A stretch of DNA of 64,000 bases from a virus. How positions within the stretch are numbered: the first letter of the stretch is position 1; every line of letters starts with the position of its first letter. A program made the position numbers and the translations under genes. Under the pieces are notes generated by a model. That model saw only the letters and a program-made list of their open reading frames with translations. It was not told the origin of the DNA and did not search any database. Shown piece after piece: positions 7,773 to 57,138 of the stretch. The DNA is taken from the IMG/VR virus record IMGVR_UViG_3300030103_005357, positions 1-64,000 of that record; one strand, 5' to 3'.

Positions 7773-8173
7773 TAAAAGGGAGGCTCATCGTCAGATCCAA
7801 ACCCAGCGTTAGCGGTAGGAGTGGCAGTATCAGACCCAGATTTAGAAGGTTGACTATCTTCTTTCTTACCAGAATTTAAGAATTGAATATTATTTCCTCT
7901 GATAAAATATTTTGATTGAGGTTTGCCAGTATCCTTGTTTTCCCAAGTGTCCATAGCAAGCTCACCAGAGAACACAAACTCACGACCTTTTGTAAGGTAT
8001 TTAGATGCGATTTCAGAGAGTTTATCCCAAACCTCAAGATCAATGAAGCATTTGGTTTTTGCGTTGCTTGGAGAGATTCCAACACGGAGGCGCGTTACCG
8101 ACTTCCCGCCATTAAGTTGACGAGTCTCTGGATCTTTTACAAGATACCCTACTGATGTAATGCTATTATACAT
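7772..8173 (-). CDS. ssb: Single-stranded DNA-binding protein
   Basis: VGYLVKDPETR OB-fold start; acidic DDEPPF tail. Confidence 0.92.
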   Translation of the reverse strand: MYNSITSVGYLVKDPETRQLNGGKSVTRLRVGISPSNAKTKCFIDLEVWDKLSEIASKYLTKGREFVFSGELAMDTWENKDTGKPQSKYFIRGNNIQFLNSGKKEDSQPSKSGSDTATPTANAGFGSDDEPPF

Positions 8174-8735
8174 AATTTTCTGATTGCTTTTTGAATTTCA
8201 ACAAACACCGATTGTGAATGTTGATTACGCCTTGAATGCTCATATCGAGTGATTTCGCTATCTTTCTCCAAGGTGTAAGCTTATTAGACACGCCATTATA
8301 TCGCATGTCAATAATTTTTTCCATTCTTTTGTCTTTTTCTTTCTGTAGAAATGATTTAAACAAAGAAAAGACCTCATTATTTTCATGCATCTCTAGGTCA
8401 CCTTTAGAATGAGGCTGCTTCAGAATATCCTCTAAAGAGCATTTTTGAAATTTCTTATTTCTGGTCAATGTGTTCAAACACTTCCATTTTGCCTCGTTAG
8501 CTAAGTATGTTGCAAATTTAGCGCCCCTTGACGAGTCATACTTCATTACCGAGTTGTATATTGTAAACTCTTTATCCTCCAGAAGAGAGTCTCTTTCGGC
8601 AGTATTTCTGCTTCCTGACATGAACTTATCCACCATATCGTGATAAATACCCGAATGTCTTTCGATTATTTCGATCAGACTGTTGCTGTCCTGATCTTCT
8701 TTAACCCTGTCTATTAATTCTTGATCTGTTTCCAT
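8166..8735 (-). CDS. Phage RNA polymerase sigma factor (sigma70 regions 2 and 4)
   Basis: KYDSSRGAKFATY region 2.3 motif; C-terminal HTH WRKIAKSLDMSIQGVINIHNR. Confidence 0.85.
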   Translation of the reverse strand: METDQELIDRVKEDQDSNSLIEIIERHSGIYHDMVDKFMSGSRNTAERDSLLEDKEFTIYNSVMKYDSSRGAKFATYLANEAKWKCLNTLTRNKKFQKCSLEDILKQPHSKGDLEMHENNEVFSLFKSFLQKEKDKRMEKIIDMRYNGVSNKLTPWRKIAKSLDMSIQGVINIHNRCLLKFKKQSENYV

Positions 8736-8874
8736 CTTTTAAAAATGCCTTATAATATATAATAATATAATATAATATAAAATAATATACGTTACCCTTT
8801 ACCTATTCGTCATACAAATCAGAAGCCTTTCTTCAAAGATTACGAATCCTCGCGGAAACAGATCGTATAACGAT

Positions 8875-8902
8875 ATTATATCGGTATTGAAAACAGTGTC
8901 AA
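8875..8902 (-). promoter_or_regulatory. Consensus sigma70 promoter for the sigma-ssb unit
   Basis: Minus strand TTGACA-N16-TATAAT; near-palindrome CGATATTATATCG (8871-8883) overlaps the -10. Confidence 0.75.
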
Positions 8903-8954
8903 CAAAAAAAAATGAAAAAATTTTAGCTAGACAAGAGACGAATATCAGTTAATA

Positions 8955-8960
8955 GTGTAA
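8955..8960 (+). promoter_or_regulatory. GTGTAA element upstream of nrdB
   Basis: 11 nt before ATG 8972; recurring motif. Confidence 0.6.
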
Positions 8961-8971
8961 CTAACGCTACT

Positions 8972-9943
8972 ATGATTTTCGAAGAGCAAATATCGAGGAA
9001 GCCTGACCATTATCCTTGGGCAGGAGAGTTTATTGAGGCAATGCATAATGGGTTCTGGACCGATAAAGAATTCAGTTTTACTTCTGATCTACAAGACTTT
9101 AATGTGGTATTAAGTGAACAAGAGAAGGAGATCATAGTTAGGACACTTTCAGCCATTGGGCAGATCGAAGTTGCTGTTAAAAAATTCTGGAGCAAGCTAG
9201 GAGATAACCTCCCCCACCCTTCTTTTAGTGATCTCGGGTTTGTCATGGCTAATGTCGAAGTTATTCACAATAACGCTTACGAGCGCCTTTTGGAAGTTCT
9301 TGGATTAGAAGAAGTTTTTGAAGAGAATCTTAAACTTGACTTTATTGAAGGCCGAGTGAACTACCTTCGGAAATATACGCATAAATTTTACAAGAATAGT
9401 AAGAAGCAATATGTTTACGCTTTAATCTTATTCACCCTTTTTGTAGAGAACGTGTCTCTGTTTTCTCAATTTTACATTATTAACCACTTTGCTCGCTTTA
9501 AGAATGTTCTTAAGGATACTGATCAACAGGTTAAGTATACTCGCAATGAGGAGAACGTTCACGCTTTAGTTGGAATGAAAATTATCAACACCATTCGAGA
9601 AGAGCATCCTGAGCTTTTTGACGGGGAGTTGGAAGAGCGTATTCTCGACGAAGCTCAACAAGCTTTTAAAGCTGAGAGTAAAATGATTGATTGGATGGTT
9701 AACGGCATTCAAGAGAAGGGTCTTAGCGCCCCCATCCTAAAAGAATTCATTAAAAATAGGATCAATGATTCTTTACAAAAAATTGGCTTTAAACAAGCTT
9801 TCGATGTTGACAAAAATCTACTGAAAGATACAATCTGGTTTGAAGAGGAGTTGCTTGGTAATAATGCCACCGACTTCTTTCATTCTCGACCAGTCGAGTA
9901 TTCAAAAAATTCACAGACGTTCAACGCAGAGGACTTGTTCTAA
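8972..9943 (+). CDS. nrdB: Ribonucleotide reductase class Ia beta subunit
   Basis: Di-iron ligands EVIHNNAY, VENVSLFSQF, RNEENVH; C-terminal DFFHSRPVEY. Confidence 0.95.
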   Translation: MIFEEQISRKPDHYPWAGEFIEAMHNGFWTDKEFSFTSDLQDFNVVLSEQEKEIIVRTLSAIGQIEVAVKKFWSKLGDNLPHPSFSDLGFVMANVEVIHNNAYERLLEVLGLEEVFEENLKLDFIEGRVNYLRKYTHKFYKNSKKQYVYALILFTLFVENVSLFSQFYIINHFARFKNVLKDTDQQVKYTRNEENVHALVGMKIINTIREEHPELFDGELEERILDEAQQAFKAESKMIDWMVNGIQEKGLSAPILKEFIKNRINDSLQKIGFKQAFDVDKNLLKDTIWFEEELLGNNATDFFHSRPVEYSKNSQTFNAEDLF

Positions 9944-11611: not shown

Positions 11612-11617
11612 GTGTAA
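11612..11617 (+). promoter_or_regulatory. GTGTAA element
   Basis: 11 nt before ATG 11629. Confidence 0.6.
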
Positions 11618-11628: not shown

Positions 11629-12603
11629 ATGGAGTTGGACTTTTCTAAGAAAATTAAAGAACTTTTGGAGCGATCTGAAGCTGCAAGGCGTAGTGGGCCA
11701 AAAAGTGGAGCGCAAACTCCTGCAAAACCATCAGAGCGCAAAAAAGGTTCTAGTAAGAATAAGAAGGGTTCTGCTGGAGGTAAAGGAGGTTCAATTACAT
11801 TTTCTGCAAAAGTTATTACTTCTCTTAAAAATAAAGTTAAAGAACATAACGACAAACACTCTAAAAAAGTCACCCTTGGCCAACTAAAGAAAATTTATCG
11901 TCGTGGCGCTGGCGCTTTTTCTTCCAGCCACCGCCCCGGAAAGACTAGAGGTCAGTGGGCTATGGCTCGCGTTAATATGTTCCTTAAAATGGTTAGGGGA
12001 GGTAAAGTTAAAAAGTCTTACCGTGCTGCTGATCAAGACGTAGCAAAAGGTTCTGAAGAGTATTACCTTGAAAAAGAAGGTGAAGCTTTTGTTGATTTTG
12101 CCGATATTGAGTTTGATATAGCTCACCTTGATCTAGTTATGGTTGGGGCTAATGAGTGGGAGCAAGATGATTCAACAGAAGATCTTGAGTTTTCAGAGGC
12201 TGAAAAAAAAACTTTAAATAAGCCCTTCCGACTAAAAGACGGTAAAAAGAAGTATGGGGTTTATGTCAAAAACCCAAAGACTGGTAATGTGATTATGGTC
12301 AAGTTTGGTGATCCCAACATGGAAATCAAACGTGATGACCCAGCTCGTCGTCGCAGCTTTAGAGCTAGACATAAATGCGATACCGCTAAAGATAAAACGA
12401 CTCCTCGTTATTGGAGTTGCAGGTTTTGGTCGAAAAAGCCTGTCAGCCAGATGGTTTCTAATGAAGTCCTAGCTTGGGATGAAGAAGAAGTTTATAGTGA
12501 GTGGGTTTGGGATGATGAAGGTTTCGCTGATCATCAAGATTTATTAAATGCTTTCCCTTTCTTAGAAAGTGTACGAGAAATTGTTGAAGAAGAAGAAGTT
12601 TAG
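11629..12603 (+). CDS. Modular basic/acidic phage protein of unknown function
   Basis: Start moved to ATG 11629. Contains YRRGAGAF..SHRPG..QWAMARVN and KFGDPNMEIKRDDPARRRSFRARHKC..RYWSC modules that I recall from other large viruses. Confidence 0.6.
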   Translation: MELDFSKKIKELLERSEAARRSGPKSGAQTPAKPSERKKGSSKNKKGSAGGKGGSITFSAKVITSLKNKVKEHNDKHSKKVTLGQLKKIYRRGAGAFSSSHRPGKTRGQWAMARVNMFLKMVRGGKVKKSYRAADQDVAKGSEEYYLEKEGEAFVDFADIEFDIAHLDLVMVGANEWEQDDSTEDLEFSEAEKKTLNKPFRLKDGKKKYGVYVKNPKTGNVIMVKFGDPNMEIKRDDPARRRSFRARHKCDTAKDKTTPRYWSCRFWSKKPVSQMVSNEVLAWDEEEVYSEWVWDDEGFADHQDLLNAFPFLESVREIVEEEEV

Positions 12604-12621
12604 GCTATAATCATGCATTGC

Positions 12622-13332
12622 ATGAAGCCTAGAGTATCTATAATAACTTCTATTTACAAAGCTTCTGATTTTCTGTATGATTTCCTGATTGATGCAAAAC
12701 GTCAATTTATTTTTCCAGAATCAGAAGTTTTACTTCTAGATGCTAATCCTGAAGGTTATGAGCAGGACTATGAAATTATAAAACCATTTTTAAATCTACA
12801 CCCATTTAAATATTCCAAGATTGGAGAGTGTAATGTTTATGAAGCTTGGAATAAAGGTATAGAATTGTCCTCAAGCGATATTATCTGTAATTGGAATGTA
12901 GATGACAGAAGAGAGGTAACTTCACTAAAGAAGCAAGTTCACTTTTTAGAAAATAATCCAGATTCTGATGTTTGCTATGGTACTGTTAATGTCAGTTCAG
13001 AACCTAACGAGGTTTTTGAATATTCAAACAGCACTAAAATATGGCCTTGTTTAGATGGCTCTATAGAGAACCAAATGTTAAATAATTCTCCTCATTGTTT
13101 TCCTGTATGGAGAAAATCTATACACGATAGGTTTGGTCTCTTCGACACTTCTTATTTTTCAAGTGCTGACTACGATATGTGGTTCAGAGTTTTAATTGGA
13201 GGGGGGAAGCTAAGCAAAATGGACGATATTATCGGTTTATATTACGCAAACCCGAATTCGATTTCTAGAAAAAAAGAAACACTTGAAAAGGCTGTTAACG
13301 AAGTCATGGAGATAAGACGAAAATATTCATGA
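12622..13332 (+). CDS. GT2 family glycosyltransferase
   Basis: VSIITSIY, NVYEAWNKGI, NVDD, ADYDMW. Start moved to ATG 12622 because TATAAT abuts ATG 12613. Confidence 0.85.
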   Translation: MKPRVSIITSIYKASDFLYDFLIDAKRQFIFPESEVLLLDANPEGYEQDYEIIKPFLNLHPFKYSKIGECNVYEAWNKGIELSSSDIICNWNVDDRREVTSLKKQVHFLENNPDSDVCYGTVNVSSEPNEVFEYSNSTKIWPCLDGSIENQMLNNSPHCFPVWRKSIHDRFGLFDTSYFSSADYDMWFRVLIGGGKLSKMDDIIGLYYANPNSISRKKETLEKAVNEVMEIRRKYS

Positions 13333-13988
13333 AAAAAATAATTTCTTATTCACTTTGGGGCGATAATCCTAAATATTGCGTTGGGGCTGTTAAAAATGCA
13401 GAACTCAGGAAGCGTTTTTATCCAGATTGGATATCTAGATTTTATGTTCATAAAAACGTTGATAAAACGTATGTAGATCAATTAAAATCTGTAGAAGGCA
13501 CAGAGGTTATCATAAAAACTAATAAAGCTGACTGGACTGGAATGTTTTGGAGGTTTGAAGCCATTTCTGACAATGATGTTTCTATCATGATCTGTAGGGA
13601 TACAGATAGCAGACTCTCTCTTAGGGAATCTTCAGCTGTAAAAGAGTTTGAAGAAAGCGGGATGGTTTTTCATATTATGAGAGATCACCCTTATCATAAT
13701 GCATTTGTTCTTGGTGGGATGTTTGGTGTCAAAAAAGGTTTGATAGATGATATGAAAGATTTATGTGATGATTTCTATCAAACAGATGATTACGGCACAG
13801 ATTATAAATTTTTTAACTCAATCAAAAATAGGATACCTGCATTCCTAACAATGGTTCACGATGAGTTTAGGGGTGGTCTAAATTTCCCCACAGAAAGAGT
13901 GGGGTTAGAATTTGTCGGTGAGGTTTATGATGAAAATGAAAACTATATAGAAGAACATAAAACACCCTTAATGAACTCCCTAAAATGA
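13329..13988 (+). CDS. Putative GT-A glycosyltransferase-like protein
   Basis: ISYSLWG..KY, GMFWRF, CRDTDSR (DxD), MRDHPYH..LGGMFG. Confidence 0.6.
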   Translation: MKKIISYSLWGDNPKYCVGAVKNAELRKRFYPDWISRFYVHKNVDKTYVDQLKSVEGTEVIIKTNKADWTGMFWRFEAISDNDVSIMICRDTDSRLSLRESSAVKEFEESGMVFHIMRDHPYHNAFVLGGMFGVKKGLIDDMKDLCDDFYQTDDYGTDYKFFNSIKNRIPAFLTMVHDEFRGGLNFPTERVGLEFVGEVYDENENYIEEHKTPLMNSLK

Positions 13989-14818
13989 ATAATATACTCA
14001 TTACAGGTTCTTCTGGCTATATAGGTTCTCATCTTTTAAAAAAGATACAGAGTTGTTTTTTAACTGATGTTTGCGGCTTAGATAAAGAAAACCCTGATAA
14101 GGTTTATCCCGATAAATTTTATTATGGAGACATTAGGAATGATAAGTATGTAAAATACAAAGACCCCTTTGAATGCGTTATTCATTTGGCGGCTGAAATG
14201 AGAGTTGGCGAGTCGGTAAAAGATCCTATATTATATTACGAGACCAATGTTTTGGGTACTTTAAATGTTTTAAAAAATATTAAAACTAAACATTTTATTT
14301 TCGCATCAACTGGAGCGGCAGAAGGTTTAGCTTCCCCATATGGGCTTTCTAAAAAAGCAGCAGAAGAAATAGTTATTCAATATTGCACCGAAAACAATAT
14401 TGATTATACAATATTTAGATTTTACAATGTGATTGGTTCGGATGGCATTTCTATTAAAAATCCTGATGGATTATTTTACAATCTTTTAAAATCAAAAGAC
14501 ACAGGAGTATTTACAATTTTTGGGAACGACTACGATACTGAAGATGGAACCTGCATAAGAGATTATGTTCATGTGAACGAAATCTGTGAATCGATAATTT
14601 CTGCTGTAGAAAAACCAGCTAATCAAATTGAAAATTTAGGGCATGGAAGAGGAACCTCTGTGCTAGAGATGTTTAACATTTTTAGAAAAGTGAATAATCT
14701 TAATGTGTCTTTGCAATATGGCCCTCGTAGAAAAGGCGACATTGCAATAAGTGTCTTAAAAAACAAAAGCTCATACATTAAAGATATTTATTCTATAGAA
14801 GATTTATTGACGTTATGA
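13985..14818 (+). CDS. NDP-sugar 4-epimerase (GalE-like extended SDR)
   Basis: TGSSGYIG, YGLSK, FRFYNVIG, DGTCIRDYVHV. Confidence 0.88.
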   Translation: MNNILITGSSGYIGSHLLKKIQSCFLTDVCGLDKENPDKVYPDKFYYGDIRNDKYVKYKDPFECVIHLAAEMRVGESVKDPILYYETNVLGTLNVLKNIKTKHFIFASTGAAEGLASPYGLSKKAAEEIVIQYCTENNIDYTIFRFYNVIGSDGISIKNPDGLFYNLLKSKDTGVFTIFGNDYDTEDGTCIRDYVHVNEICESIISAVEKPANQIENLGHGRGTSVLEMFNIFRKVNNLNVSLQYGPRRKGDIAISVLKNKSSYIKDIYSIEDLLTL

Positions 14819-15765
14819 AATTGTTCAATATAGATTGTCATATATCAGTAATATCTGACATAAAAAATATATTTGAATCTTTGGGTAATCAAGTAGATCA
14901 TTGGTCTTTATCTGGTCATCGTTGGGTTTTTGATTTTGATAAATGTAAATCTCCAATTATCAATGAAGCTAATTGGACGAACTTAAATCAAGAAATGGTT
15001 GATCAATTTTATGACCATCATAAAGAAGATTTAGACAGTTATGACGCTTTTATATGCGCTTACCCACCGTGTTTTTTAAAGCTGTTTGAAAAATTCAACA
15101 AACCCATAATAGTAATAGCGGCGACGAGGTACGATCACCCATTCACTAATGATCAAACAAGGCTTGACTGGCTGGAGGACTCTTTAAAGAACAATAAAAA
15201 TTTAATACTGACGGCAAATAATCAGTTTGATCAAAAATATTGTGAACATTTTTTAGGAAACAAGTGGGAGTGGATACCCAGCCTGTGCGACTATACAGAA
15301 TCCAAGTATAATCCAAAAAAACAACAATCAATATTATTTAGCAAATTCAATGCTGACTTAGGATCGAATGTGTTACACCAGTCAAGCTTAGGAAATTATT
15401 CTTGGAAAGATTTATATTCCTACAAGAGCATTATCCATATGCCCTACAATATCTCAACTATGTCTATATTTGAGCAATATCAGGCTGGAGTTCCGTTAAA
15501 TATTCCTAGTCTAAACTTTTTATTAGAACTCATAGATCAGGGTTATCCAGTGTTGACAGAGATAACATTCCCCACGAATGACCCAAAAAGAAATCGGGAA
15601 AAGTTCCTAAAAAAAGAATGGTTACAATATTCGGACTTTTATAATGGGACGGTGAAATGCAATTACCTTGACAAAAATTTTAAATTGAAATATAATGTAG
15701 CCAACACATCTAACAAAGATTCCATTTTTTCTAAATGGGAAAAAATCCTAGAGAAAATAAAATGA
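14815..15765 (+). CDS. Putative glycosyltransferase-like protein
   Basis: HMPYNISTMSIFEQYQAGVP resembles a GT-B C-terminal motif; cluster context. Confidence 0.5.
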   Translation: MKLFNIDCHISVISDIKNIFESLGNQVDHWSLSGHRWVFDFDKCKSPIINEANWTNLNQEMVDQFYDHHKEDLDSYDAFICAYPPCFLKLFEKFNKPIIVIAATRYDHPFTNDQTRLDWLEDSLKNNKNLILTANNQFDQKYCEHFLGNKWEWIPSLCDYTESKYNPKKQQSILFSKFNADLGSNVLHQSSLGNYSWKDLYSYKSIIHMPYNISTMSIFEQYQAGVPLNIPSLNFLLELIDQGYPVLTEITFPTNDPKRNREKFLKKEWLQYSDFYNGTVKCNYLDKNFKLKYNVANTSNKDSIFSKWEKILEKIK

Positions 15766-16343
15766 GTGGACAGATAAATAGAGGCAGTCAGTTAGGAGAA
15801 TTAATTTTTAATTTGGTCAAAAACAAAGATTACAAAAAGTTTCTAGAAATAGGGACTTGGAACGGCCAAGGAAGCACAAAATGTTTTATAGACGCTTTAT
15901 TGGAAAGAGACGATGATTACTCATTCACTTCTATCGAAGCAGATATTGGATTTTACGATCAAGCAGTAAATTTCCATAAAAATAATTTGTCGTCTAAAAT
16001 TAAAATTATACATGGCACTATAATCAATGATTCAGATCTAATCCAGCCAAACTCTAACGAGGAAAAGAAATGGTTAGATAACGATTTAAAAAATTATAAA
16101 AATTGCCGAAATGTATGGGGAGATATACAAACAGAATTCGATGTTGTCCTTTTGGATGGAGGAGAATTTTCTACACATCAAGAGTTTTTAAAATTAAAAG
16201 ACTCAACAAAAGTTTTCATATTAGACGATACAAAAATGGCCAAAACTAGTCAAGTATTGAAGGATTTAAGTGATGACCCTAGCTGGGCTTTAAATTGCTC
16301 TTCAAAAGATAGGAATGGTTTTGCGATCTTTACTAAAAAATGA
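15762..16343 (+). CDS. Class I SAM-dependent methyltransferase-like protein
   Basis: FLEIGTWNGQGST, FDVVLLDGGE, ILDDT; ATGA-coupled start. Confidence 0.75.
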   Translation: MSGQINRGSQLGELIFNLVKNKDYKKFLEIGTWNGQGSTKCFIDALLERDDDYSFTSIEADIGFYDQAVNFHKNNLSSKIKIIHGTIINDSDLIQPNSNEEKKWLDNDLKNYKNCRNVWGDIQTEFDVVLLDGGEFSTHQEFLKLKDSTKVFILDDTKMAKTSQVLKDLSDDPSWALNCSSKDRNGFAIFTKK

Positions 16344-17137
16344 ATACGTTACAGATAAATAAAATCTCCAAACTGCATAACGGTAAGGATATTTTTTTCT
16401 GTAAAACTGATTTTATAGAGGAAGCTTTTATTAAAATACAGAACACTAAAAATGATGTAATATTTATTTCTGGGAATAGTGATTACTGCATAGATAACAG
16501 CTTGGTCAAAAAAGCCCCCAAAAATATAAAAAAATGGTTTTGCCAAAACAGGCTTTCTGATGATGGTTTACTAGAGTCCATTCCGATAGGAATAGAGAAC
16601 GCAGTTCCATGTTCGATTGATGGTCATGGATACGTTTGGCCTCACGCAATAGAAAAGCCATCTATAATTAATCGTTTAAAAAACGAAGCTATACAAAACT
16701 GCATTAATTTGATCTATTCTAATTTTAATGTAAATACTAATCCAGCTCATAGAAATGAAATAAAACAATACATATCTAAATTAGATCACATAACTAAAGA
16801 AGAGTGTACTCTAAATTACGAGGATTTCGTAAAGGGTATATTGTCTCATGAAGCTGTCTTATGCCCTCAAGGTAATGGGGAAGGAGATAATCATAGAATA
16901 TACGAAACACTTCATTTAGGAAAAGTTCCAATAACTTTTAATAACAAACAATTCAAATACTTACATCATAAATTTCCAGTTGTATTAATTGAAAATATCA
17001 AAGAGTTGAGTGATAAATATCTCATCGAAAATAAGATACGCGAAGCTCAGAGTAAATTCGATGATAAATATTTAGATGCAAATTACTGGATTGACAAAAT
17101 AAAAAATGAAGCGCAAAAACGTAATACTACTAGGTAA
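16340..17137 (+). CDS. Exostosin-like (GT47-type) glycosyltransferase
   Basis: VLCPQGNGEGDNHRIYETLHLGKVPI. Confidence 0.65.
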   Translation: MNTLQINKISKLHNGKDIFFCKTDFIEEAFIKIQNTKNDVIFISGNSDYCIDNSLVKKAPKNIKKWFCQNRLSDDGLLESIPIGIENAVPCSIDGHGYVWPHAIEKPSIINRLKNEAIQNCINLIYSNFNVNTNPAHRNEIKQYISKLDHITKEECTLNYEDFVKGILSHEAVLCPQGNGEGDNHRIYETLHLGKVPITFNNKQFKYLHHKFPVVLIENIKELSDKYLIENKIREAQSKFDDKYLDANYWIDKIKNEAQKRNTTR

Positions 17138-17732
17138 AGGCTCTTTGGCTATAAAAATAGCAGAATGGTTTAAAAACAATCACAACTTAGTCGCTGTGAT
17201 TCCAGATATGCCAGAGCCTGATTGGTCAGACTCTCTTGTAAATTGGTGCAAGAATAATAACGTTAAGTTTATAGAATCTGGAAATCACGAAGATTTAGAT
17301 GCAGATATTACTATTGATTTGGCAATGTCTGTTTTCTATGGTAAAATTATAAAAAAATCTTTCATTTCTAGGTGTGACTCGATTATAAATCTTCATAATG
17401 CTCCTCTACCTAAATACAGAGGTGTTCGCCCAATAAACTGGGCGCTTAAAAATAAGGAAAGAGAGCATGGCGTAACTATACATAAAATTCACGAAGGTAT
17501 TGATGATGGAGATATATTAGGATTAGTTAAATACCCTATTTATCCTGAGATTGAAGAAGTGGGCGATGTGTACAAAAAAGCTTTAGATTATGGATGGCTA
17601 CTTTTCAAAGATGTAGCAACAAAGCTTGATTATTGCCTCTCGACTGCATCTCCACAATCTGAAGAATTTACCTACTATTCTAACAAGCAAAATCACCTGC
17701 TAGGTGATAGATCTAACTTCACAAGACAATGA
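17106..17732 (+). CDS. Sugar N-formyltransferase (N10-formyl-THF dependent)
   Basis: INLHNAPLPKYRG..PINWAL, GVTIH, GIDDGDI; no tRNA-binding C-domain as in Fmt. Confidence 0.85.
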   Translation: MKRKNVILLGKGSLAIKIAEWFKNNHNLVAVIPDMPEPDWSDSLVNWCKNNNVKFIESGNHEDLDADITIDLAMSVFYGKIIKKSFISRCDSIINLHNAPLPKYRGVRPINWALKNKEREHGVTIHKIHEGIDDGDILGLVKYPIYPEIEEVGDVYKKALDYGWLLFKDVATKLDYCLSTASPQSEEFTYYSNKQNHLLGDRSNFTRQ

Positions 17733-18679
17733 TAAGTGTAGATGTAGTTTGCTGGGATTCTAATCTGTATGTTCCACCGATATGGAATGACATACAAGCT
17801 CAGTCCTTAAACAATCATCCTGAATTTAGAATAAATAACATATTCACTACCGCACCTAGTCACGGACTAAATCAAACGCTTTTCAGAGAATCTCAGGCAG
17901 ACATTCTTATTTCCATATGCCCAGATCAACACCCTTTCGGTTTTTCTGTTCAAGATATTCAAAAATATAAAAAGATAGTATTTATTGAAGTCGAACCTAT
18001 TTATAATACAAATGCTATGAGCTTAGCTGCTCATAATAGATTTATATCTGAATGCAAAGGCGTTATTAGAGAGGACGATGTGATTTACTATTGCTCCAAC
18101 CTAGACAGGGATCTTAGTCAAATGCCTTGCGTGAAAAAATCTTGGCATTCAGGTTTAAACTTATTTTTTCCTGAAAAACCCGCAAGAGAAAATAAAAAAA
18201 TGCAGATAATCACCGATGCATCAGTAATTAACGCATGGAATGGTAGAAAATATTTTTTTGATAAATTCAACTCAATAGAAAATTTAACTAAAATAATGCA
18301 TGTGGAATCACCAGATTGGGGATCTACAAGTCAATTAATATCAGAATCTAAAATATATCTAATCCCCCCACACCCATTAATTATCCACTGGCTTAGGTTT
18401 TCTAGAGCTTTACATTTAGGAGCTTTACCAGTTGTTGTTAACTATGATGGATGGCTTGAGGATAAAAATATCCAAAACGCTTATGAAGATATAATTAATG
18501 AAAACGGCAAAACTTGTTTATTAACTAATTTGGGCGAATTTGACAAAACTATCGAACTACTAAGAGATGAAGACTATGTAGATTCTTTATTAGACAATAT
18601 TTATAATAAAGATTTATACGAATATAGTATCGAAAGTGTGTGGAATAATTTGTATAAACATTTAAAATCTTGTATATGA
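17729..18679 (+). CDS. Hypothetical, possibly glycosyltransferase-like
   Basis: Weak GT-B-like C-terminus (RFSRALHLGALPVV); cluster context. Confidence 0.4.
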   Translation: MISVDVVCWDSNLYVPPIWNDIQAQSLNNHPEFRINNIFTTAPSHGLNQTLFRESQADILISICPDQHPFGFSVQDIQKYKKIVFIEVEPIYNTNAMSLAAHNRFISECKGVIREDDVIYYCSNLDRDLSQMPCVKKSWHSGLNLFFPEKPARENKKMQIITDASVINAWNGRKYFFDKFNSIENLTKIMHVESPDWGSTSQLISESKIYLIPPHPLIIHWLRFSRALHLGALPVVVNYDGWLEDKNIQNAYEDIINENGKTCLLTNLGEFDKTIELLRDEDYVDSLLDNIYNKDLYEYSIESVWNNLYKHLKSCI

Positions 18680-19509
18680 AAATAGGGATTATAGGAATGG
18701 GTTACTGGGGGAAGATCATCCTTAGAAATTTAATCGAACTGGGTTACTCAGATATAATCGTCTGTGAACAAAGAGAGATAGATTGGTCATCCATAGGTTC
18801 TAAATTCCATGTTGAAAAAGATTACAAAAAATTAGAGTGTGATAAGGTCTTTGTTCTCACTCCAGCAACAACTCACTACGAGATTTGCGATCACTTCTTA
18901 TCTAAGGGCGTTGATGTTTTTTGCGAAAAACCTTTAGACCAGAATATCGATAGGTGTAAAAAACTTTTTGAGCTAGCTCGTAAGAAAAATGCGATTTTGT
19001 TTGTGGACTGGTTATTCTCTTTCAATCCTGCTGTGCATCAAATCAAGTCCCTAATAAAACAGCTTGGAAAACCAACCAATATTATAGCGAACCGAATGAA
19101 CTTTGGTCCAGAAAGATTTGATGTAAATGCTAGGTGGGATTTGGCATCTCACGATGTCTCAATCGCTTGTTTTCTTCTAGATGAAAATCCTGAAAGCGTA
19201 AAGTGGTTGGATTTTAAAAGAAACGCAAAATCCAAACAAGATGACAGTGTTGTAGGGATTTTATCTTTTGAGCAAACATGTGTTCAAATTAATGCAAGCT
19301 GGTCTTACAACATAAAAAATAGACTATATACGATTGAATTTGATGAAGGGTTTTTATATTGGGATGATTCTAACCAGTCTATCTTATTCAACTCTGAACA
19401 GATTAATGTTAGTAAGCAGTCTCCACTACACAATTCAATAAATGAATTTTTCTCTAGGAAGTCAAATGAAGAACTTACCGAAGTAATCACTAATATTTTA
19501 AATAAATGA
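18676..19509 (+). CDS. Gfo/Idh/MocA oxidoreductase (NDP-sugar 3-dehydrogenase-like)
   Basis: GIIGMGYWG, TPATTHY, FCEKP, WDLASHD. Confidence 0.9.
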   Translation: MKIGIIGMGYWGKIILRNLIELGYSDIIVCEQREIDWSSIGSKFHVEKDYKKLECDKVFVLTPATTHYEICDHFLSKGVDVFCEKPLDQNIDRCKKLFELARKKNAILFVDWLFSFNPAVHQIKSLIKQLGKPTNIIANRMNFGPERFDVNARWDLASHDVSIACFLLDENPESVKWLDFKRNAKSKQDDSVVGILSFEQTCVQINASWSYNIKNRLYTIEFDEGFLYWDDSNQSILFNSEQINVSKQSPLHNSINEFFSRKSNEELTEVITNILNK

Positions 19510-20609
19510 ACGTACAATTTAATGATTTAAAAAGCCAATGGAACTTGATTAAAAATGATTGTTTAAGTGACATAAATTCACTTTTTGAAAACTCAAATTT
19601 TATTCTTGGTAAGCAGGTTAATGAATTCGAAAAAGAATTCGCTCAGTTTATTGGTTGTAAATATGCTATTGGCGTATCAAATGGAACTGATGCCATCAAA
19701 TTAGCAGCACAATCCCTAAATTTAAAAGGTAAAAATTTATTTATAATACCATCAAACACTTTTGTAGCAACCATTTTTGGGGTCGAACAAGCTTATCCAG
19801 AGGCGACTTTTGAAATGATTGATTGTAATGAATACCATCAGTTAGATATGGATTTGCTGGAATCTAGGTTGTCTGCTGTTGGTCATGAATACGATAATGT
19901 AGTTGTTGTGCCTGTCCATCTTTATGGCTATACTGTTGACATGGATAAGCTGCAATCCATTACAAATAATTACAATTGCCTTGTTTTAGAAGACGCATCT
20001 CAATCTCATGGGGCAGAATATAAAAATCAAAAAACAGGTTCTATTGGAGATGTTTCCGCTTTCTCTTTATACCCGGGTAAAAATTTAGGTGCAGCGGGAG
20101 ATGCGGGAGTAATAACAACTAACAATTCCGACATTTATCATAAATTACTAAAATTGAGAAATCTTGGGTCATCAAAAAAATACATACATACGTTAAAAGG
20201 ATTTAATAATAGGCTTGATACTATACAAGCGATAATATTAAAACACAAATTAAAATTTTTAGATGAATGGAATCAAGCTAGAAGAGATGTCGTGAAGCTA
20301 TTTGAATCTAAGATAACTAACTCTTCGATTGTTAAACCTAAAACGCCAAAAAACTGCCTTCCAGTTCACCATATTTATCCTATTTTAACTGATGATCGAC
20401 AGGGTTTTATAAACTACTTAAACGAAAAAGGTATCCAAAGCGGAATCCACTATCCAATTATAATAAACAAAATGGAAATGTATTCAGATAAGTTCAGTTT
20501 ACATAATAACGCTTATGAGTTTAGCCAAAAAATGGTTAGTCTGCCAATACATCCATTTTTAAATGATAATCAGGTTGAATATATTTGCGATCAAATAAAT
20601 AAATATTGA
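19506..20609 (+). CDS. DegT/DnrJ/EryC1/StrS PLP sugar aminotransferase
   Basis: SNGTDA, VHLYG, EDASQSHGA, FSLYPGKNLGAAGDAG. Confidence 0.93.
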   Translation: MNVQFNDLKSQWNLIKNDCLSDINSLFENSNFILGKQVNEFEKEFAQFIGCKYAIGVSNGTDAIKLAAQSLNLKGKNLFIIPSNTFVATIFGVEQAYPEATFEMIDCNEYHQLDMDLLESRLSAVGHEYDNVVVVPVHLYGYTVDMDKLQSITNNYNCLVLEDASQSHGAEYKNQKTGSIGDVSAFSLYPGKNLGAAGDAGVITTNNSDIYHKLLKLRNLGSSKKYIHTLKGFNNRLDTIQAIILKHKLKFLDEWNQARRDVVKLFESKITNSSIVKPKTPKNCLPVHHIYPILTDDRQGFINYLNEKGIQSGIHYPIIINKMEMYSDKFSLHNNAYEFSQKMVSLPIHPFLNDNQVEYICDQINKY

Positions 20610-20644
20610 TAAACATTTCACATGAATTATAATACTCAGAAATA

Positions 20645-21760
20645 ATGAACGGTTTTGAGGAGACATACTACGGAAAAAAAATTGATCATATGGACATTCT
20701 AAATATTGAAGATGCTAAAAAATGGCTATCAGGAAGAGAATGCATTGTCGTTACTGGTGTTACTGGTCAGGATGGTAGTCATATGGTAGATTTTCTTCTT
20801 AAAAATACCGATTATATTGTTTTTGGTTGCGTTCGTCGTTTGAGTGTTTACAATCACGATAATATTTCTCACATCAAAAGTGATAGATTTAGGTTGATTA
20901 ATTTTGATCTTACTGACGCAAACCTCATCTCCAGAACAGTTGAGTCTTTAAAGCCAAAATATTTTATTAATCTTGCTGCTCAAAGTTTTGTTGGAAGCAG
21001 CTGGGATTTTGCTTTACAAACTTGGGAGACAAACTCTACTTCAGTTTTAAATATACTTGAATCTATTAGAATCCATTGTCCTTCTTGCAGATTCTATCAA
21101 GCTGGCTCCTCAGAAGAGTTTGGAGACGTTTTGCATTCTCCGCAATCAGAGTGTCACCCTTTACGCCCAAGAAGTCCATATGGAGCTTCTAAAGCCGCTG
21201 CGAGACAATTGATAAAAGTTTGGCGAGATTCTTATGATTTGTACGCTATTCAGGGTTGGTTATTCAATCACGAAGGCACTCGTCGAGGGGAAGAGTTTGT
21301 TACTCGCAAAATTACTAAGAACGTAGCTCGTATTCAAAAAGAATATGCTAGCGGAGAGTTTAAACCTCTAGAATTGGGCAACGTAGATGCCATGCGAGAT
21401 TGGAGTGACGCTGAAGATTTCGTCGAAGGTATTTGGTTAATGCTTAATCAAGAAAAACCTAAAGAATATGTTCTTTCTTCAAATGAAACTCACACTATTC
21501 GGGAGTTTGTAGAGGAAGCGTTTAATTTTGCTGGCTTTGGTTCCGAGAAGTGTCGTTGGGATGGTCATGGGGTCAATGAGAAATATTACCACGAAGATAA
21601 GATTCTAGTACAGATCAACACAGACTTTTATCGCCCCGCTGAAGTTGAGCTTCTTTTGGGGGATTCTAATTTAGCTAGAAAAGAATTAGGTTGGAAGCCA
21701 AAAACAGATTTTTTAGGTTTAGTGAGAAAAATGGTTGCACACGATATTGATCTATGCTAG
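20645..21760 (+). CDS. gmd: GDP-mannose 4,6-dehydratase
   Basis: TGVTGQDGS, NLAAQSFV, PRSPYGASK, LFNHEG, FVTRKIT, RPAEVELLLGD. Confidence 0.93.
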   Translation: MNGFEETYYGKKIDHMDILNIEDAKKWLSGRECIVVTGVTGQDGSHMVDFLLKNTDYIVFGCVRRLSVYNHDNISHIKSDRFRLINFDLTDANLISRTVESLKPKYFINLAAQSFVGSSWDFALQTWETNSTSVLNILESIRIHCPSCRFYQAGSSEEFGDVLHSPQSECHPLRPRSPYGASKAAARQLIKVWRDSYDLYAIQGWLFNHEGTRRGEEFVTRKITKNVARIQKEYASGEFKPLELGNVDAMRDWSDAEDFVEGIWLMLNQEKPKEYVLSSNETHTIREFVEEAFNFAGFGSEKCRWDGHGVNEKYYHEDKILVQINTDFYRPAEVELLLGDSNLARKELGWKPKTDFLGLVRKMVAHDIDLC

Positions 21761-21769
21761 GATAACTTT

Positions 21770-22243
21770 ATGCCAAGAGGTAAAAAGCAATGCCCTAGCT
21801 GCGAAGATTTTGTCGCAACTAGGGCTTCTTGTTGTGGTTGTGGTCATATCTTTACAAAAAAGAAAGTTGGCGAATCTAAAAAGGCAAAACCTAAGACTGG
21901 CAAACCCAAGATAAGCAAAATAGACATCTTAAAAAGGCTAGTTGAAGACCCTAAAAATAATAAAAGATTTTTTTATGCTAGGGAGATGAAGATGCTGAAT
22001 GATTTAGTGGACCTCTATTCACTTGAATTCATGAATGTGGTCAACCTCGGTAGGAGATTTGAATCCTTAGCTTACTTTAAACATTCAAAAGTTAAGGAGA
22101 AGCTTGACAGGAGGTTCAGAGAGTTTAATTATGTGACAGACAAGTCACGATACCCCGAATACAATCTAGGTGAAAAAAGCGGCGAAGATCGATTCGTCAA
22201 AAGAAAGAAGAGAACAGTAAAAGACTTTTTAGAAGAAGAATAA
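21770..22243 (+). CDS. Hypothetical basic protein with N-terminal zinc ribbon
   Basis: CPSC..CGCGH; TTGCAC-N17-TAGGAT ends 6 nt upstream. Confidence 0.55.
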   Translation: MPRGKKQCPSCEDFVATRASCCGCGHIFTKKKVGESKKAKPKTGKPKISKIDILKRLVEDPKNNKRFFYAREMKMLNDLVDLYSLEFMNVVNLGRRFESLAYFKHSKVKEKLDRRFREFNYVTDKSRYPEYNLGEKSGEDRFVKRKKRTVKDFLEEE

Positions 22244-22244
22244 T

Positions 22245-25540: not shown

Positions 25541-26558
25541 AGAGTTTGAGAAGGTCTTAATTTCAATAGGTTATAAACTTATCGATTGTGGTGATCACTG
25601 GAGATCGCAAGCTTTATATCGTAATGGGGACAATGCTACCGCTTTAAAAATTTATAAAAATACAGGAGTCTGGATGGACTTTGTAGAACCTAAAGGATCT
25701 TTACCTTTTGATGCTTTAGTTCGAATGACTGTGGGAGATGACCACAAGGTCTCTGAAACTTTAAAAAAAATAAAAAGCGATAAAGTTTATGTCGCCCAAA
25801 AAGTAGACAGAATAGAAATGGAACAAATTTATCCAGAAGATTGCTTAGACAAACTTTTCCCAAATTACAAGTTTTACAAAGATCGTGGGATCTCAGAGGA
25901 AACTCAAAGAGCTTTTAAAATTGGCTTGGCTGGAGTAGGCAAAATGTACCGTAGGATGGTCTTCCCCATCTACAACCAAGACAATCATATTATTGGTTTC
26001 TCTGGTCGGAAGATAGACGATCATAACGATTTTCCTAAATGGAAGCATATCGGTAAAAAGAATACTTGGGTATACCCTGCATGCATTCAGGACAATGAGT
26101 GCAGTGCAGAAATCGACCGTCGCAGTCAAGTTATCTTGGTTGAGAGTATAGGTGATGCAATGGCTTTATATGATCAAGGCGTTAAAAACGTTTTAGTTTT
26201 GTTTGGGCTTTCTGCTAGCTCTAATATTATTAATTATTTGTCTAGCAAAGTCTTAGACGATATTTACATTTCAACTAATAATGATTCTAAATCCTCACAG
26301 AATAGAGGATTGATAGCTGCGATTAAGAACTATCTGAAGCTAGCAAAGTATTTTGATTTAGATAATCTTACTATCAAACTTCCTCAAAATGGAAATGATT
26401 TTGGAGAAATGTATCAGAGTGGCTATAATATCAATAACTGGCTTAGTAGGCATATAGACCAACAAGAGCAAAAAGATTATATTAGTAATTTTGTCTCTAA
26501 GAATCCAACCTTATTCACTAAGACGGAAAGTAAAATGGCCAAAAAAATAAATGATTGA
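25473..26558 (+). CDS. DNA primase (DnaG-like, Toprim)
   Basis: RMVFPI..IIGFSGR, KWKH, LVESIGDAM, NNDS; exact start uncertain. Confidence 0.85.
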   Translation: MTVYQMHQQGKTETTSQNLVPSEEFEKVLISIGYKLIDCGDHWRSQALYRNGDNATALKIYKNTGVWMDFVEPKGSLPFDALVRMTVGDDHKVSETLKKIKSDKVYVAQKVDRIEMEQIYPEDCLDKLFPNYKFYKDRGISEETQRAFKIGLAGVGKMYRRMVFPIYNQDNHIIGFSGRKIDDHNDFPKWKHIGKKNTWVYPACIQDNECSAEIDRRSQVILVESIGDAMALYDQGVKNVLVLFGLSASSNIINYLSSKVLDDIYISTNNDSKSSQNRGLIAAIKNYLKLAKYFDLDNLTIKLPQNGNDFGEMYQSGYNINNWLSRHIDQQEQKDYISNFVSKNPTLFTKTESKMAKKIND

Positions 26559-27576: not shown

Positions 27577-27600
27577 TCTTTGTTCAGAGTTGTGTAGAAT
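27573..27600 (+). promoter_or_regulatory. Sigma70-like promoter for the polymerase genes
   Basis: TTGATC-N16-TAGAAT, 9 nt before ATG 27610. Confidence 0.5.
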
Positions 27601-27609: not shown

Positions 27610-28353
27610 ATGATCCCAGTATTTAAATCTACATACTCGTATGGCAAAAGTATCTTGACTCTCAAAGGCGAGTCAGAAGATTGTGGTTCAGACTCCCTGA
27701 TCGAAATGTGCCTTGATAATGGGATCAAGGATGTTATTCTGGTGGAGGATAACCTTACGAGTTTTATGAAGGCATTTAAAGTCTGTTTGGATAACGATTT
27801 GAATTTGTATTACGGATTGAGACTCACCTTCTGCAATGATATGAAGGAGGATTCCAAAAGCTCTAGTCATAAAAATATTATCTTCGCAAAGAATGACGAA
27901 GGTTGTAAGTTGCTAAATAAAATTTATTCTTGTGCTTTTACGGAGGGAGATGGCTGCATAGACTACGCTGCATTCAAAGAGTATTGGGACAGTTCAGCCC
28001 TATCCTTTGTGGTTCCCTTTTACGACAGTTATCTTTACGAGAATAATTTTCATCAAAAAAACTGTATCCCTAATCTAGAAGGACTAAATCCTGTTTTCTG
28101 GAGTGAAGACAACTCTCTCCCTTTCGACCACCTACTAAATGCTAAGCTTGAAGAAGCTGTAAAAAGAAAGCAATATAAGGTTGTCAAGACGAAGACCATA
28201 CTTTACAAAGAGAAGAAGGATGTCGAAGCTCTCCAAACATACAAGATTCTTTCGAATAGATCCTTTGGTAAAGAATCAACCCTTAGTAGCCCAAACTTAA
28301 GTCATTTTGGAAGCGAAGAGTTTTGTCTGGAAAGTTACCTTGAACAGTCATGA
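27610..28353 (+). CDS. Stand-alone PHP domain of DNA polymerase III alpha
   Basis: STYSYGKSIL, YGLRL, IFAKNDEGCKLLNKIYS follow the DnaE N-terminal layout; HxH ligands absent. Confidence 0.75.
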   Translation: MIPVFKSTYSYGKSILTLKGESEDCGSDSLIEMCLDNGIKDVILVEDNLTSFMKAFKVCLDNDLNLYYGLRLTFCNDMKEDSKSSSHKNIIFAKNDEGCKLLNKIYSCAFTEGDGCIDYAAFKEYWDSSALSFVVPFYDSYLYENNFHQKNCIPNLEGLNPVFWSEDNSLPFDHLLNAKLEEAVKRKQYKVVKTKTILYKEKKDVEALQTYKILSNRSFGKESTLSSPNLSHFGSEEFCLESYLEQS

Positions 28354-31519: not shown

Positions 31520-31531
31520 GCGTAACTATAT

Positions 31532-34212: not shown

Positions 34213-34241
34213 ACCCGTCCCTTTAAAAGGGGCGGGTTTTT
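34213..34241 (+). terminator. Intrinsic terminator
   Basis: ACCCGTCCCTTT/AAAGGGGCGGGT hairpin followed by a T run. Confidence 0.75.
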
Positions 34242-34254
34242 GTTATAATACATT

Positions 34255-40746: not shown

Positions 40747-40754
40747 AGATTTAA

Positions 40755-40812
40755 TTACACAATTTATTTTAATTAATATTAAAATATTTCAAAAAATTTG
40801 ATTTAGGTGTAA
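40755..40812. promoter_or_regulatory. Back-to-back GTGTAA elements
   Basis: TTACAC 40755-40760 (minus gene) and GTGTAA 40807-40812 (plus gene) in a divergent gap. Confidence 0.7.
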
Positions 40813-40822
40813 TTAAAATCAA

Positions 40823-43720: not shown

Positions 43721-43760
43721 TTCTACAGGTTATAATAGTAGAAAAGGTGTAATATTAAAC

Positions 43761-54855: not shown

Positions 54856-54858
54856 GAC

Positions 54859-55248: not shown

Positions 55249-55270
55249 AAAACATTTAAATTAATTTAAA

Positions 55271-55402: not shown

Positions 55403-55432
55403 TTTTTGGCGGTTTTAGGTGTAATATAATAT

Positions 55433-55627: not shown

Positions 55628-55655
55628 TACTTTTTAGTATATTAAAACCTTAATC

Positions 55656-55693
55656 TCCCTCACTCTGAATATTCGGGGTGAGGGAATTTTTTT
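55656..55693 (+). terminator. Intrinsic terminator
   Basis: TCCCTCACTCTGAA/TTCGGGGTGAGGGA hairpin plus T tract. Confidence 0.75.
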
Positions 55694-55762
55694 GCCAAAA
55701 CCTTTTCACCAAGGGCAAATATTCTCTTGACAATCTAGAGGTAAATAGTGTAATACATACAC

Positions 55763-56014
55763 ATGAAGATTACAGGTAAGCAGGAAGTCGAAATTGAGAT
55801 TTCCCAAGGCCAAAGACACTTGATTGCTCTTGATTATATTTCAGAGGTATTTGATTGGGACTCAGACTACTTTATTGAGGATGGTTGGGTAATTAAGCGT
55901 GATATAGCTCACACCTCACACTCATTTGAGATTAAGAATAAAGTGAGGGAAGCGAGCAAGCGCGATCAATGTCTGTATGACATCTTCAAAACTTTGAAAA
56001 GACAAGCTTTTTAA
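55763..56014 (+). CDS. Hypothetical protein
   Basis: Preceded by both TTGACA (55727) and GTGTAA (55748). Confidence 0.6.
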   Translation: MKITGKQEVEIEISQGQRHLIALDYISEVFDWDSDYFIEDGWVIKRDIAHTSHSFEIKNKVREASKRDQCLYDIFKTLKRQAF

Positions 56015-56256
56015 CCGTTAAATGAGGAACCGTCCCCAGTGTAACGTAAACCAGCATCAAAGGGGGAAATATAGAGAGACTCGTTTTGATTTAAATCTCT
56101 GATCTTCTTATTGAATTCTCTGGAAATATGATCATCCAATTCCCTATGAGGCATGTTACCGCTGTAAAAGGTAAGGATTTCCGATCTATAATTAGTCCAA
56201 GCCTCTGAAGAGCTAGAGAAGTCTACATGTATTCTTGATTGAGTTAATCGTGGCAT
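56011..56256 (-). CDS. Hypothetical protein
   Basis: 81 aa ORF downstream of 56260..56793. Confidence 0.55.
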   Translation of the reverse strand: MPRLTQSRIHVDFSSSSEAWTNYRSEILTFYSGNMPHRELDDHISREFNKKIRDLNQNESLYISPFDAGLRYTGDGSSFNG

Positions 56257-56259
56257 TTC

Positions 56260-56793
56260 TTATTCTCCTTTAGCCCTTTTAATTTGGTCTGCGGTGGGCG
56301 CACCTTTGTCGCCTTTCTTTCTCATTTTCTCACCAGAACCACTCTTGATCCGCTCTTTCTTTTTTCTGATGTTTTCCCACAAGCTGCTATCAGACTTCTC
56401 CTTCTCCTTCTCTTTTTCCTTCTCCTTTAAGATCTCGTCATGGCGCTTCATGAACGTTTTATGATCTGGTCCAGCCATATATAAAGTCTTACCATCTTTT
56501 GTTTTGTGAGGGTGGATACCCTTAAGACCTAACTTCTTAGCGTCCTTCAGAGCCTCCTCTTTTGTTTCAAAGTAGTGCTGCATTACATTAGGCGCTGCGC
56601 TAGAGAAAAACAAAATCTTATCTTCGTCCCCAAGAACTACGGAAGCTTTACTTTCAGCATCTTGGAATTGAGAAGAGCAAACAGCAATCCTTTGCTTGAT
56701 ATCTTTGAACTCGTCCTTGGCTGCAATATCAACCATACAGCGGCTCATAAATTTAGATTTTTTTTCTCCGTTTTTAGGTGTTGGTAAAGGCAT
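56260..56793 (-). CDS. Modular basic phage protein
   Basis: MPLPTPKNGEKKSKFMSRCM and LWENIRKKKERIKSGSGEKMRKKG..GAPT modules; GTGTAA 8 nt upstream. Confidence 0.65.
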   Translation of the reverse strand: MPLPTPKNGEKKSKFMSRCMVDIAAKDEFKDIKQRIAVCSSQFQDAESKASVVLGDEDKILFFSSAAPNVMQHYFETKEEALKDAKKLGLKGIHPHKTKDGKTLYMAGPDHKTFMKRHDEILKEKEKEKEKEKSDSSLWENIRKKKERIKSGSGEKMRKKGDKGAPTADQIKRAKGE

Positions 56794-56817
56794 ACTAATT
56801 GTTACACCTAAAATGTG

Positions 56818-57117
56818 TTATTTTTTCACTTTTTTTAAGTGCGTGTTTTCAAGAACCCAAGGAATCACAAGATTCTCAACACACCTCACATAAGCTTCTT
56901 CGTCGTTTATTTCCATGAAGGCTAAACCTGTCATCTCAAAAATCATGTGAGTTGCTTCATGAACCAAGGTCCACCAGTGCTGTTCTGGATCTGTTAGGCA
57001 TTTTTTATTCAATTTAATTACCTTATCATCCATCAAACATTCTCCCCAATCTTCCATTTCCTCGTAAATAATTTTAATCTTCTTGCTGAGAATGTTTACG
57101 GAAGAAAGCCTCTTCAT
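56818..57117 (-). CDS. Minimal HExxH zincin-like protein
   Basis: TLVHEATHMIF..EE; GTGTAA 8 nt upstream. Confidence 0.65.
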   Translation of the reverse strand: MKRLSSVNILSKKIKIIYEEMEDWGECLMDDKVIKLNKKCLTDPEQHWWTLVHEATHMIFEMTGLAFMEINDEEAYVRCVENLVIPWVLENTHLKKVKK

Positions 57118-57138
57118 ACCTATGATTACACTTAATTC

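Follow-up and report, generated by a model that had tools for sequence, protein, structure and literature searches.

Promoters that consist of a single short element read by a phage sigma factor are known from a few laboratory phages (T4, SPO1 and phiEco32). In T4, the sigma-like protein gp55 recognizes the -10-only late promoter TATAAATA, which precedes many late genes, including those of free-standing homing endonucleases; gp55 has no sigma4 domain and needs gp33 and the gp45 clamp. Here we describe the hexamer GTGTAA, which lies 8-11 nucleotides (nt) upstream of start codons in IMGVR_UViG_3300030103_005357, an uncultured marine phage, of which we analyzed a stretch of 64,000 nt (the window; positions are numbered within it). 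The same window encodes P0001, a divergent protein of the sigma-70 superfamily. GTGTAA is most likely a one-element promoter used by this phage and by hundreds of its distant relatives. By analogy, the closest described system appears to be gp36 of phiEco32, a small phage sigma whose early synthesis depends on the host sigma70 holoenzyme (PMC12276001, PMC4331800). The middle and late promoters of gp36 carry a single AATGTA element centred at -11.5 and no -35 box (PMC12276001), with the consensus TAATGTATA (PMC4331800).

The counterpart of the phiEco32 element in phage 7-11 is TGATGT. GTGTAA resembles the gp36 promoter in being a single short element with a TGTA core and no -35 box, and its centre would likewise fall at -11.5, provided that transcription starts at the ninth nt after the motif. 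The two systems differ in motif sequence and in the locking of GTGTAA 8-11 nt from the start codon, from which leaderless messages are predicted here. Moreover, gp36 has no detectable homology to the P0001 family (hhalign probability 0.3%, E=0.21), so that the two would be separate families working in a similar way. A first-pass annotation of the window, made from its sequence alone, had chosen T4 gp55 as the analogue. This comparison remains apt for a phage sigma with a -10-only promoter, and GTGTAA likewise precedes genes of free-standing homing endonucleases in a related phage (G001, see below). However, P0001 keeps a sigma4-like helix-turn-helix, which makes gp36 the closer analogue, and has no homology to gp55 (hhalign probability 0.3%). 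Also, T4 late mRNAs have leaders with Shine-Dalgarno (SD) sites, our T4 control showing GAGGA upstream of its genes.

Two further comparisons are instructive. With the extracytoplasmic function (ECF, group 4) sigmas, P0001 shares the sigma2 plus sigma4 architecture, a length of about 190 amino acids and structural matches including SigE, SigH, SigW and AlgU. In contrast to them, it scores 25.0 bits against a cut-off of 42.9 for TIGR02937, the bipartite ECF promoter with an AAC-type -35 and a CGT-type -10 has no counterpart (no position upstream of GTGTAA is conserved in 115 non-redundant sites), and no anti-sigma partner was identified. The -10 element of Escherichia coli sigmaE (GTCAAA) bears a loose likeness to GTGTAA. 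Leaderless promoters of Mycobacterium and Deinococcus have their -10 hexamer 5-7 nt before the start codon, and leaderless promoters have been reported for the middle and late genes of the Thermus phage P23-45. The fixed short distance between element and start and the lack of SD sites recall these promoters, as does TATAAT, which in the genomes with GTGTAA peaks 5-6 nt ahead of ATGs; the difference is that GTGTAA would define a second, phage-specific class with another element and, probably, a phage sigma.

The GTGTAA element and its position

Nine copies of GTGTAA in the window lie 8-11 nt upstream of ATGs, with spacers of 11, 11, 10, 8, 8 and 9 nt on the + strand and of 8, 8 and 8 nt on the - strand. 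The open reading frames (ORFs) that follow encode 64-686 amino acids. All nine sites and spacers had been listed in the first-pass annotation, and each was found in its place before an ORF-opening ATG. The overall frequency of the hexamer is unremarkable, with 35 copies in the window vs 25.8 ± 4.3 in dinucleotide shuffles. When all hexamers were ranked in the -25 to -1 region of 79 mechanically picked ORF starts, GTGTAA came first (8 observed vs 0.43 expected, p=2e-8), which is the positional enrichment expected from the earlier proposal. The motif had also been described as missing before overlap-coupled genes, and indeed none of 7 motif genes has an overlap-coupled start vs 46 of 72 other genes (Fisher p=0.0015). 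Over all loci, the figures are 12% and 57% (p=9e-40). This avoidance is partly geometric, as the motif cannot be accommodated in less than 14 nt. SD sites are missing at most window genes, the upstream regions being merely A/T-rich.

The comparison was extended to other phages with P0001 as the query, which yielded 36 IMG/VR loci with 39-96% identity, and with two other window proteins, which yielded 63 further loci. Our pooled set comprises 2023 unique ATG starts, and our non-redundant alignment 115 sites. In the pooled set, GTGTAA occurs 171 times at spacers of 8-11 nt where 1.6 are expected, a 107-fold enrichment, and about 9% of the genes carry it. Among the single-base variants, GTGTAT is enriched 15-fold and the other 17 are at background. 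All six positions thus hardly vary, as is typical where DNA is read by a protein and in contrast to RNA-RNA pairing. No -35 box was found in alignments of 9, 26 or 115 sites. Beyond the hexamer, nothing is conserved in the 115 sites except a G/C-poor stretch from -6 to -2 and a T directly after the motif in 61%. The element is therefore strict and single, in line with the -10-only promoter first suggested.

The spacing itself is informative. Spacers of 7, 8, 9, 10, 11 and 12 nt are represented by 6, 84, 47, 31, 51 and 11 sites, respectively, with a hard lower edge at 8. Exact TATAAT in the same genomes peaks 5-6 nt before ATGs, apparently the signature of leaderless genes on ordinary -10 boxes; compared with such a -10 hexamer, the end of GTGTAA is thus some 2 nt more distant from the ATG. 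T directly precedes the ATG in 65% of the spacer-8 class vs 36% elsewhere (p=2e-6), and in the spacer-11 class a pyrimidine occupies position +8 after the motif in 14/20 sites and a purine position +9 in 15/20. Both fit the usual pyrimidine(-1)/purine(+1) start preference at the ninth nt after the motif, and a start at this position would place GTGTAA at -14 to -9 (centre -11.5). The hard edge at 8 would then arise because a start codon any nearer would be cut off from the message. Together, the spacer limit and the pyrimidine/purine pair fit mRNAs that would be leaderless or carry leaders of 1-3 nt. Some motifs directly follow strong terminators: at 71527 in G001, a -23 kcal hairpin with TTTTT is followed by CC, GTGTAA, 9 nt and ATG.

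The fixed distance between motif and AUG also lies within the range of ribosome-binding sites, and GTGTAA could instead act in RNA, either as a translation-initiation or ribosome-binding signal or as a processing site or one bound by a phage RNA-binding protein, on transcripts from further upstream. The host rarely uses SD sites, nearly half of the sites are in short same-strand gaps, and four of the sites in the window contain AGGTG, a string similar to part of an SD sequence. We nevertheless regard an RNA-level role as quite unlikely. A general translation signal would hardly be confined to about 9% of genes and avoid coupled ones, and GTGTAA admits no mismatch or wobble variants, unlike RNA-RNA pairing. 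The conserved core is GTGTAA rather than AGGTG, many sites reading TAGTGTAA or TTGTGTAA, and the SD reading was rejected since its GG is not conserved. The 3' tail of 16S rRNA is not known to contain a UUACAC complement. Furthermore, no promoter is conserved upstream of the motif, even in a divergent gap of 76 nt or right after terminators, and position -1 of the ATG favours T. The spacer is 14-25 nt long in some orthologues, two of which, at 18 nt, have an AGGAA box of their own. The TAA of the motif is the stop codon of the upstream gene in just 4/157 cases, a proportion that also led us to discard a termination/re-initiation device. An extended -10 of sigma70 (TG plus TAAYNN) was rejected as well: it is out of register by one, and conservation is lacking at the downstream positions of the hexamer. 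A literature search found no paper that links GTGTAA to a phage promoter.

Conservation across uncultured phages

GTGTAA is invariant at ten orthologous gene starts, with GTGTAT in some orthologues of one site, while both flanks diverge freely. Such a pattern is the phylogenetic footprint of a functional element. The GCGTAA variant at 31520, proposed earlier as a site, proved to be real by the same comparison: the orthologues in loci L046 and L047 read TAGTGTAA, with the exact GTGTAA 8 nt before the ATG.

The motif extends far beyond close relatives. G001 is a complete phage of 146,905 bp with direct terminal repeats, whose sigma homologue is 39% identical to P0001 and whose layout is otherwise unrelated to that of the window; its top upstream hexamer is GTGTAA (21 vs 0.94 expected, p=2e-21). 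GTGTAA also leads by a wide margin in loci with the homologue P0189 (29% identical to P0001; contig GC 28-32%), with 108 vs 3.2, and in those with P0124 (39% identical), with 48 vs 1.8. It is the top hexamer in three independent distant phage groups whose only shared link is a P0001 homologue (28-39% identity). In contigs binned into metagenome-assembled genomes (MAGs), it ranks third (6 vs 0.4). The controls T4 and P-SSP7, treated in the same way, show 0 vs 0.42 and 1 vs 0.37 copies, respectively, and SD hexamers come out on top instead, which excludes an artefact of the method. For a third subfamily, P0200, no loci were retrieved.

No relative of the P0001 family was found in cultured phages by tblastn of P0001, P0189 and P0124 against 50,697 GenBank phage records; judging from these searches, the family appears to be confined to uncultured aquatic phages. 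Twelve MAG contigs with sigma homologues (L193-L204) provide a weak host hint, as they are probably mis-binned phage contigs, a class for which binning is unreliable: 6/12 are binned to Flavobacteriaceae, Crocinitomicaceae, Flavobacterium and other Bacteroidota, and the rest to Verrucomicrobiota, Bacteriovoracaceae, Cellvibrionales, Neomarinimicrobiota and even an Asgard archaeon. The consensus TTGACA/TATAAT promoters argue against a Bacteroidota host.

Among ten motif genes examined in G001, four encode free-standing homing endonucleases, and the others include those for the tape measure protein and PhoH. The endonuclease genes, of the HNH and GIY-YIG types (2408-3019, 17618-18655, 26522-27397 and 62039-62725), are each preceded by a separate GTGTAA at 8-11 nt from the start codon, as could be expected of free-standing genes, which need expression signals of their own. 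G001 also has at least 18 transfer RNA (tRNA) genes (L102 11534-17465; 51.5-57.5 kb of the genome), and several of their D-arms read GTGTAAYGGYAGCAC. A cluster of GTGTAAY at 51.6-52.5 kb of G001 was therefore set aside as false matches to tRNA D-arms. None of 41 unique regions upstream of tRNAs contains GTGTAA, a count that is uninformative.

The sigma protein P0001 and a probable transcription cascade

P0001 (189 amino acids, sigma2 plus sigma4) is encoded at 8166..8735 on the - strand, in a single copy in the window. It matches no Pfam family at E<=0.01, Sigma70_r2 and Sigma70_r4 included, and does not pass the thresholds of curated family hidden Markov models. Sub-threshold NCBIfam matches were obtained to SigK (5e-8), FliA/WhiG (4e-7) and sigma70-ECF (1e-5), with SigK and ECF alignments spanning most of the protein and the FliA/WhiG match corresponding to region 2. 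P0001 also matches phrog_351 (sigma factor), and its sequence profile in the PDB reaches only E=0.02, to WhiG.

The AlphaFold2 model, built with 24 homologues, has a mean predicted local distance difference test score (pLDDT) of 84 and displays two helical domains with a disordered linker between them. Residues 1-96 (sigma2) are helical with pLDDT above 90, and residues 97-186 (sigma4) align to the RpoD C-terminal and RpoS models, with helices modelled at 136-185. The top Foldseek matches in the PDB are all sigma factors with a probability of 1.00 (SigH, SigD, sigma32, SigB, SigA, SigE and WhiG). P0001 is thus predicted to fold as a sigma factor with sigma2 and sigma4 domains, in agreement with the assignment of this gene at first pass. 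The blocks conserved in the family are KF(S/A)TYLAN..KWKCLN in sigma2, which we take to resemble FSTYATWWIRQ (region 2.3/2.4-like), and an LSIQGxINIHN helix in sigma4. A profile search (E<1e-3) gave 1125 family clusters at 50% identity, and marine metagenomes contain more than 600 clusters at 90% identity, none with a Pfam domain. The sigma gene is present once in the window and once in G001.

About 140 nt before the sigma ATG lies TTGACA-N16-TATAAT (8902..8875, - strand), with a run of T upstream. The earlier description of this promoter as perfect is accurate: it matches the consensus at 12/12 positions and is kept by relatives with 72-96% sigma identity, the distance between the hexamers varying. 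In more distant phages, the sigma gene sits inside an operon.

A cascade can be proposed from these observations, and we consider it probable. Host RNA polymerase with its housekeeping sigma would transcribe 8166-8735 from TTGACA-N16-TATAAT, and the phage sigma, through sigma2 and sigma4, would then direct the core polymerase to GTGTAA without a -35 box. GTGTAA, sometimes GTGTAT, would serve as a one-element promoter of -10 type for a middle/late class of genes, with transcription starting around the ninth nt after the motif, which would occupy -14 to -9. The mRNAs would begin at the A of AUG or with a leader of 1-3 nt, and such messages would be translated in a host that hardly uses SD sites. 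Both the start site and the temporal order are inferred here. A wider proposal, which we offer more tentatively and rate at somewhat less than an even chance, is that a large unnamed sigma family and one invariant promoter at -14 to -9 form a middle/late system common to the whole lineage, obligatorily coupled to leaderless translation in many abundant uncultured aquatic phages (60-180 kb, GC 28-40%), with sigma4 serving something other than -35 recognition.

Several points weigh against this interpretation. About 25 further copies of GTGTAA lie inside window genes, roughly the number expected by chance, so that six bases alone cannot give full specificity. Around 48% of motif genes are found in same-strand gaps that are short (11-40 nt) and lack a terminator, which also fits a signal at the RNA level. 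Conserved sigma70-like -35 or -10 boxes occur just upstream of the motif at the genes starting at 8972 and 43761 (g8972 and g43761); they may be overlapping early promoters, or mark transcripts that include the motif. The helix-turn-helix of sigma4 is highly conserved although no -35 box exists. There is no covariation between sigma and motif, the same hexamer being found from 28% to 100% sigma identity. The motif-rich loci were all retrieved through the sigma gene or come from the same phage groups, a close relative without the sigma not being among them. Finally, that P0001 reads GTGTAA is deduced from their co-occurrence, and is in this sense a correlative claim.

These last points leave room for a different reader of GTGTAA, such as an alternative host sigma, sigma70 redirected by a co-factor of the phage, or a phage polymerase that escaped detection, with P0001 controlling another set of genes. 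The link by co-occurrence, the constancy of the motif as the sigma diverges and the sigma70-like boxes near some sites (TTGACA at g55763, TATAAT at g43761) would all be compatible with it. We judge such a reader unlikely, since no other enriched motif is available as a target of P0001 and conservation does not extend to the downstream half of the sigma70 -10 hexamer (T-7). Multisubunit RNA polymerase (beta/beta') domains were not found in G001 by a search that detected its positive controls; a search of G001 for a T7-like RNA polymerase gave no match, its control not registering either. The motif is, besides, constant over phages of 28-40% GC whose hosts probably differ, a constancy that accords with a reader carried by the phage.

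If P0001 does read GTGTAA, the single-element logic of the laboratory phages would recur in a large, widespread set of uncultured marine and aquatic phages, with a sigma family invisible to Pfam and an unusually strict promoter. The motif alone would then mark transcription starts, true start codons and temporal class in metagenomic phage contigs. The pair would also constitute a compact orthogonal sigma/promoter system, and a natural setting for studying sigma4 function without a -35 box and leaderless translation across a regulon.

The predicted leader of the sigma mRNA, about 140 nt long (8736-8875, - strand), contains a conserved small hairpin, ACCGTTATACGGT, followed by a run of TATAA/TATTA repeats of 40-50 nt up to the sigma ATG. 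Relatives have similar TATAAT-like arrays. These repeats may represent a regulatory leader or stacked -10 boxes.

Individual sites and neighbouring features

The window genes behind the motif include a ribonucleotide reductase/replication array, a ClpB-like gene, a tail-tip module and several small genes. On the + strand, the site at 8955..8960 lies 11 nt from ATG 8972 of the ribonucleotide reductase small subunit and opens a long + strand array. It is unchanged within diverged flanks in 27 relatives, reaching as far as L032 (sigma identity 47%). The site at 11612..11617 (+) follows the gene of the large subunit, 11 nt from ATG 11629, and is kept in all relatives, with a spacer of 9 in L032 and L033. 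A GTGTAG at 27592..27597 (+), 12 nt from ATG 27610, is a weak candidate variant, as single-mismatch forms other than GTGTAT are near background. The GCGTAA site (31520..31525, +) is 6 nt from ATG 31532 or 9 nt from ATG 31535 of the ClpB-like AAA+ gene.

The divergent gap at 40747-40822 (76 nt) holds two motifs back to back, one at 40755..40760 on the - strand, 8 nt from ATG 40746, and one at 40807..40812 on the + strand, 10 nt from ATG 40823 and 46 nt from its divergent partner. At 43747..43752 (+), the motif is 8 nt from ATG 43761 and precedes a lambda-like tail-tip module L-K-I-J (Pfam Phage_tail_L); a conserved TATAAT lies 10 nt upstream. Four sites fall between 55 and 57 kb: 55419..55424 (+), 8 nt from ATG 55433; 55748..55753 (+), 9 nt from ATG 55763; 56802..56807 (-), 8 nt from ATG 56793 of a DUF3721 protein, with GTGTAT in some orthologues; and 57126..57131 (-), 8 nt from ATG 57117. 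The site at 55748 is preceded by a strong terminator (55656-55685) and by a conserved TTGACA that ends 15 nt upstream of the motif.

A DNA-binding protein and a fragment of an ImmA/IrrE-like peptidase are also encoded at 55-57 kb, and these, together with the sigma70-like boxes near some sites, would suit an operator at which a phage repressor or activator acts on overlapping host-type promoters. Such a role is very unlikely for GTGTAA, a non-palindromic hexamer with strict orientation, strict distance to the ATG and no partner half-site. Moreover, the motif is found genome-wide before structural, replication and homing-endonuclease genes, and no sigma70-type -10 or -35 is conserved around most sites.

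One further copy had been put forward, at 4493..4498 (+), 18 nt before ATG 4517. It lies within the coding end of the gene at 3556-4515 (..DVLGVIPTGS*) and is probably not a real site: the peptide ..LGVIPTG.. is conserved, but L032, the most distant relative, has lost the motif, so that the copy is probably kept as protein sequence only. Within the DnaE-like polymerase gene (28979-31519), a full extended copy, TTTTAGGTGTAAC, is present at 29313-29325. It is not followed by an in-frame start, and an out-of-frame ORF of 60 amino acids begins 21 nt on; the copy may be an internal promoter or due to chance.

Host-type promoters are found elsewhere in the window. At 57126-57175, the - strand GTGTAA stands back to back, 7 nt off, with a + strand TTGACA-N16-TAAAAT-N6-ATG (57139-57175). 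The arrangement looks like a border between the GTGTAA class and a host-type, probably early, region of small genes and tRNAs at 57-64 kb. TATAAT stands immediately behind strong GC-rich terminator hairpins at 6336-6365 and about 34225-34254, and a start codon comes 5 nt after it (..CCCCCGTTTTTATTTATAATAAAACATG and ..GGGCGGGTTTTTGTTATAATACATTGTG). From their sequence, these two appear to be compact units of terminator, promoter and leaderless start of the host-type class.

Other features of the window concern its gene content. A block of lower GC (32-35%) at 11629-22243 contains genes for sugar-nucleotide synthesis and glycosyl transfer, among them a cytidylyltransferase-like protein, an aminotransferase and a nucleotide-sugar epimerase, and more glycosyltransferases are encoded at 6699-7772, 35844-37733 and 37733-38872; these genes may serve the modification of DNA or of surface glycans. 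The DnaE-type (Pol III alpha-like) polymerase is apparently split into 27610-28353 and 28979-31519, with another gene in between. It is followed at 31532-33949 by the ClpB/ClpA-like protein, a double-AAA+ protein of 805 amino acids that is unusual in a phage.

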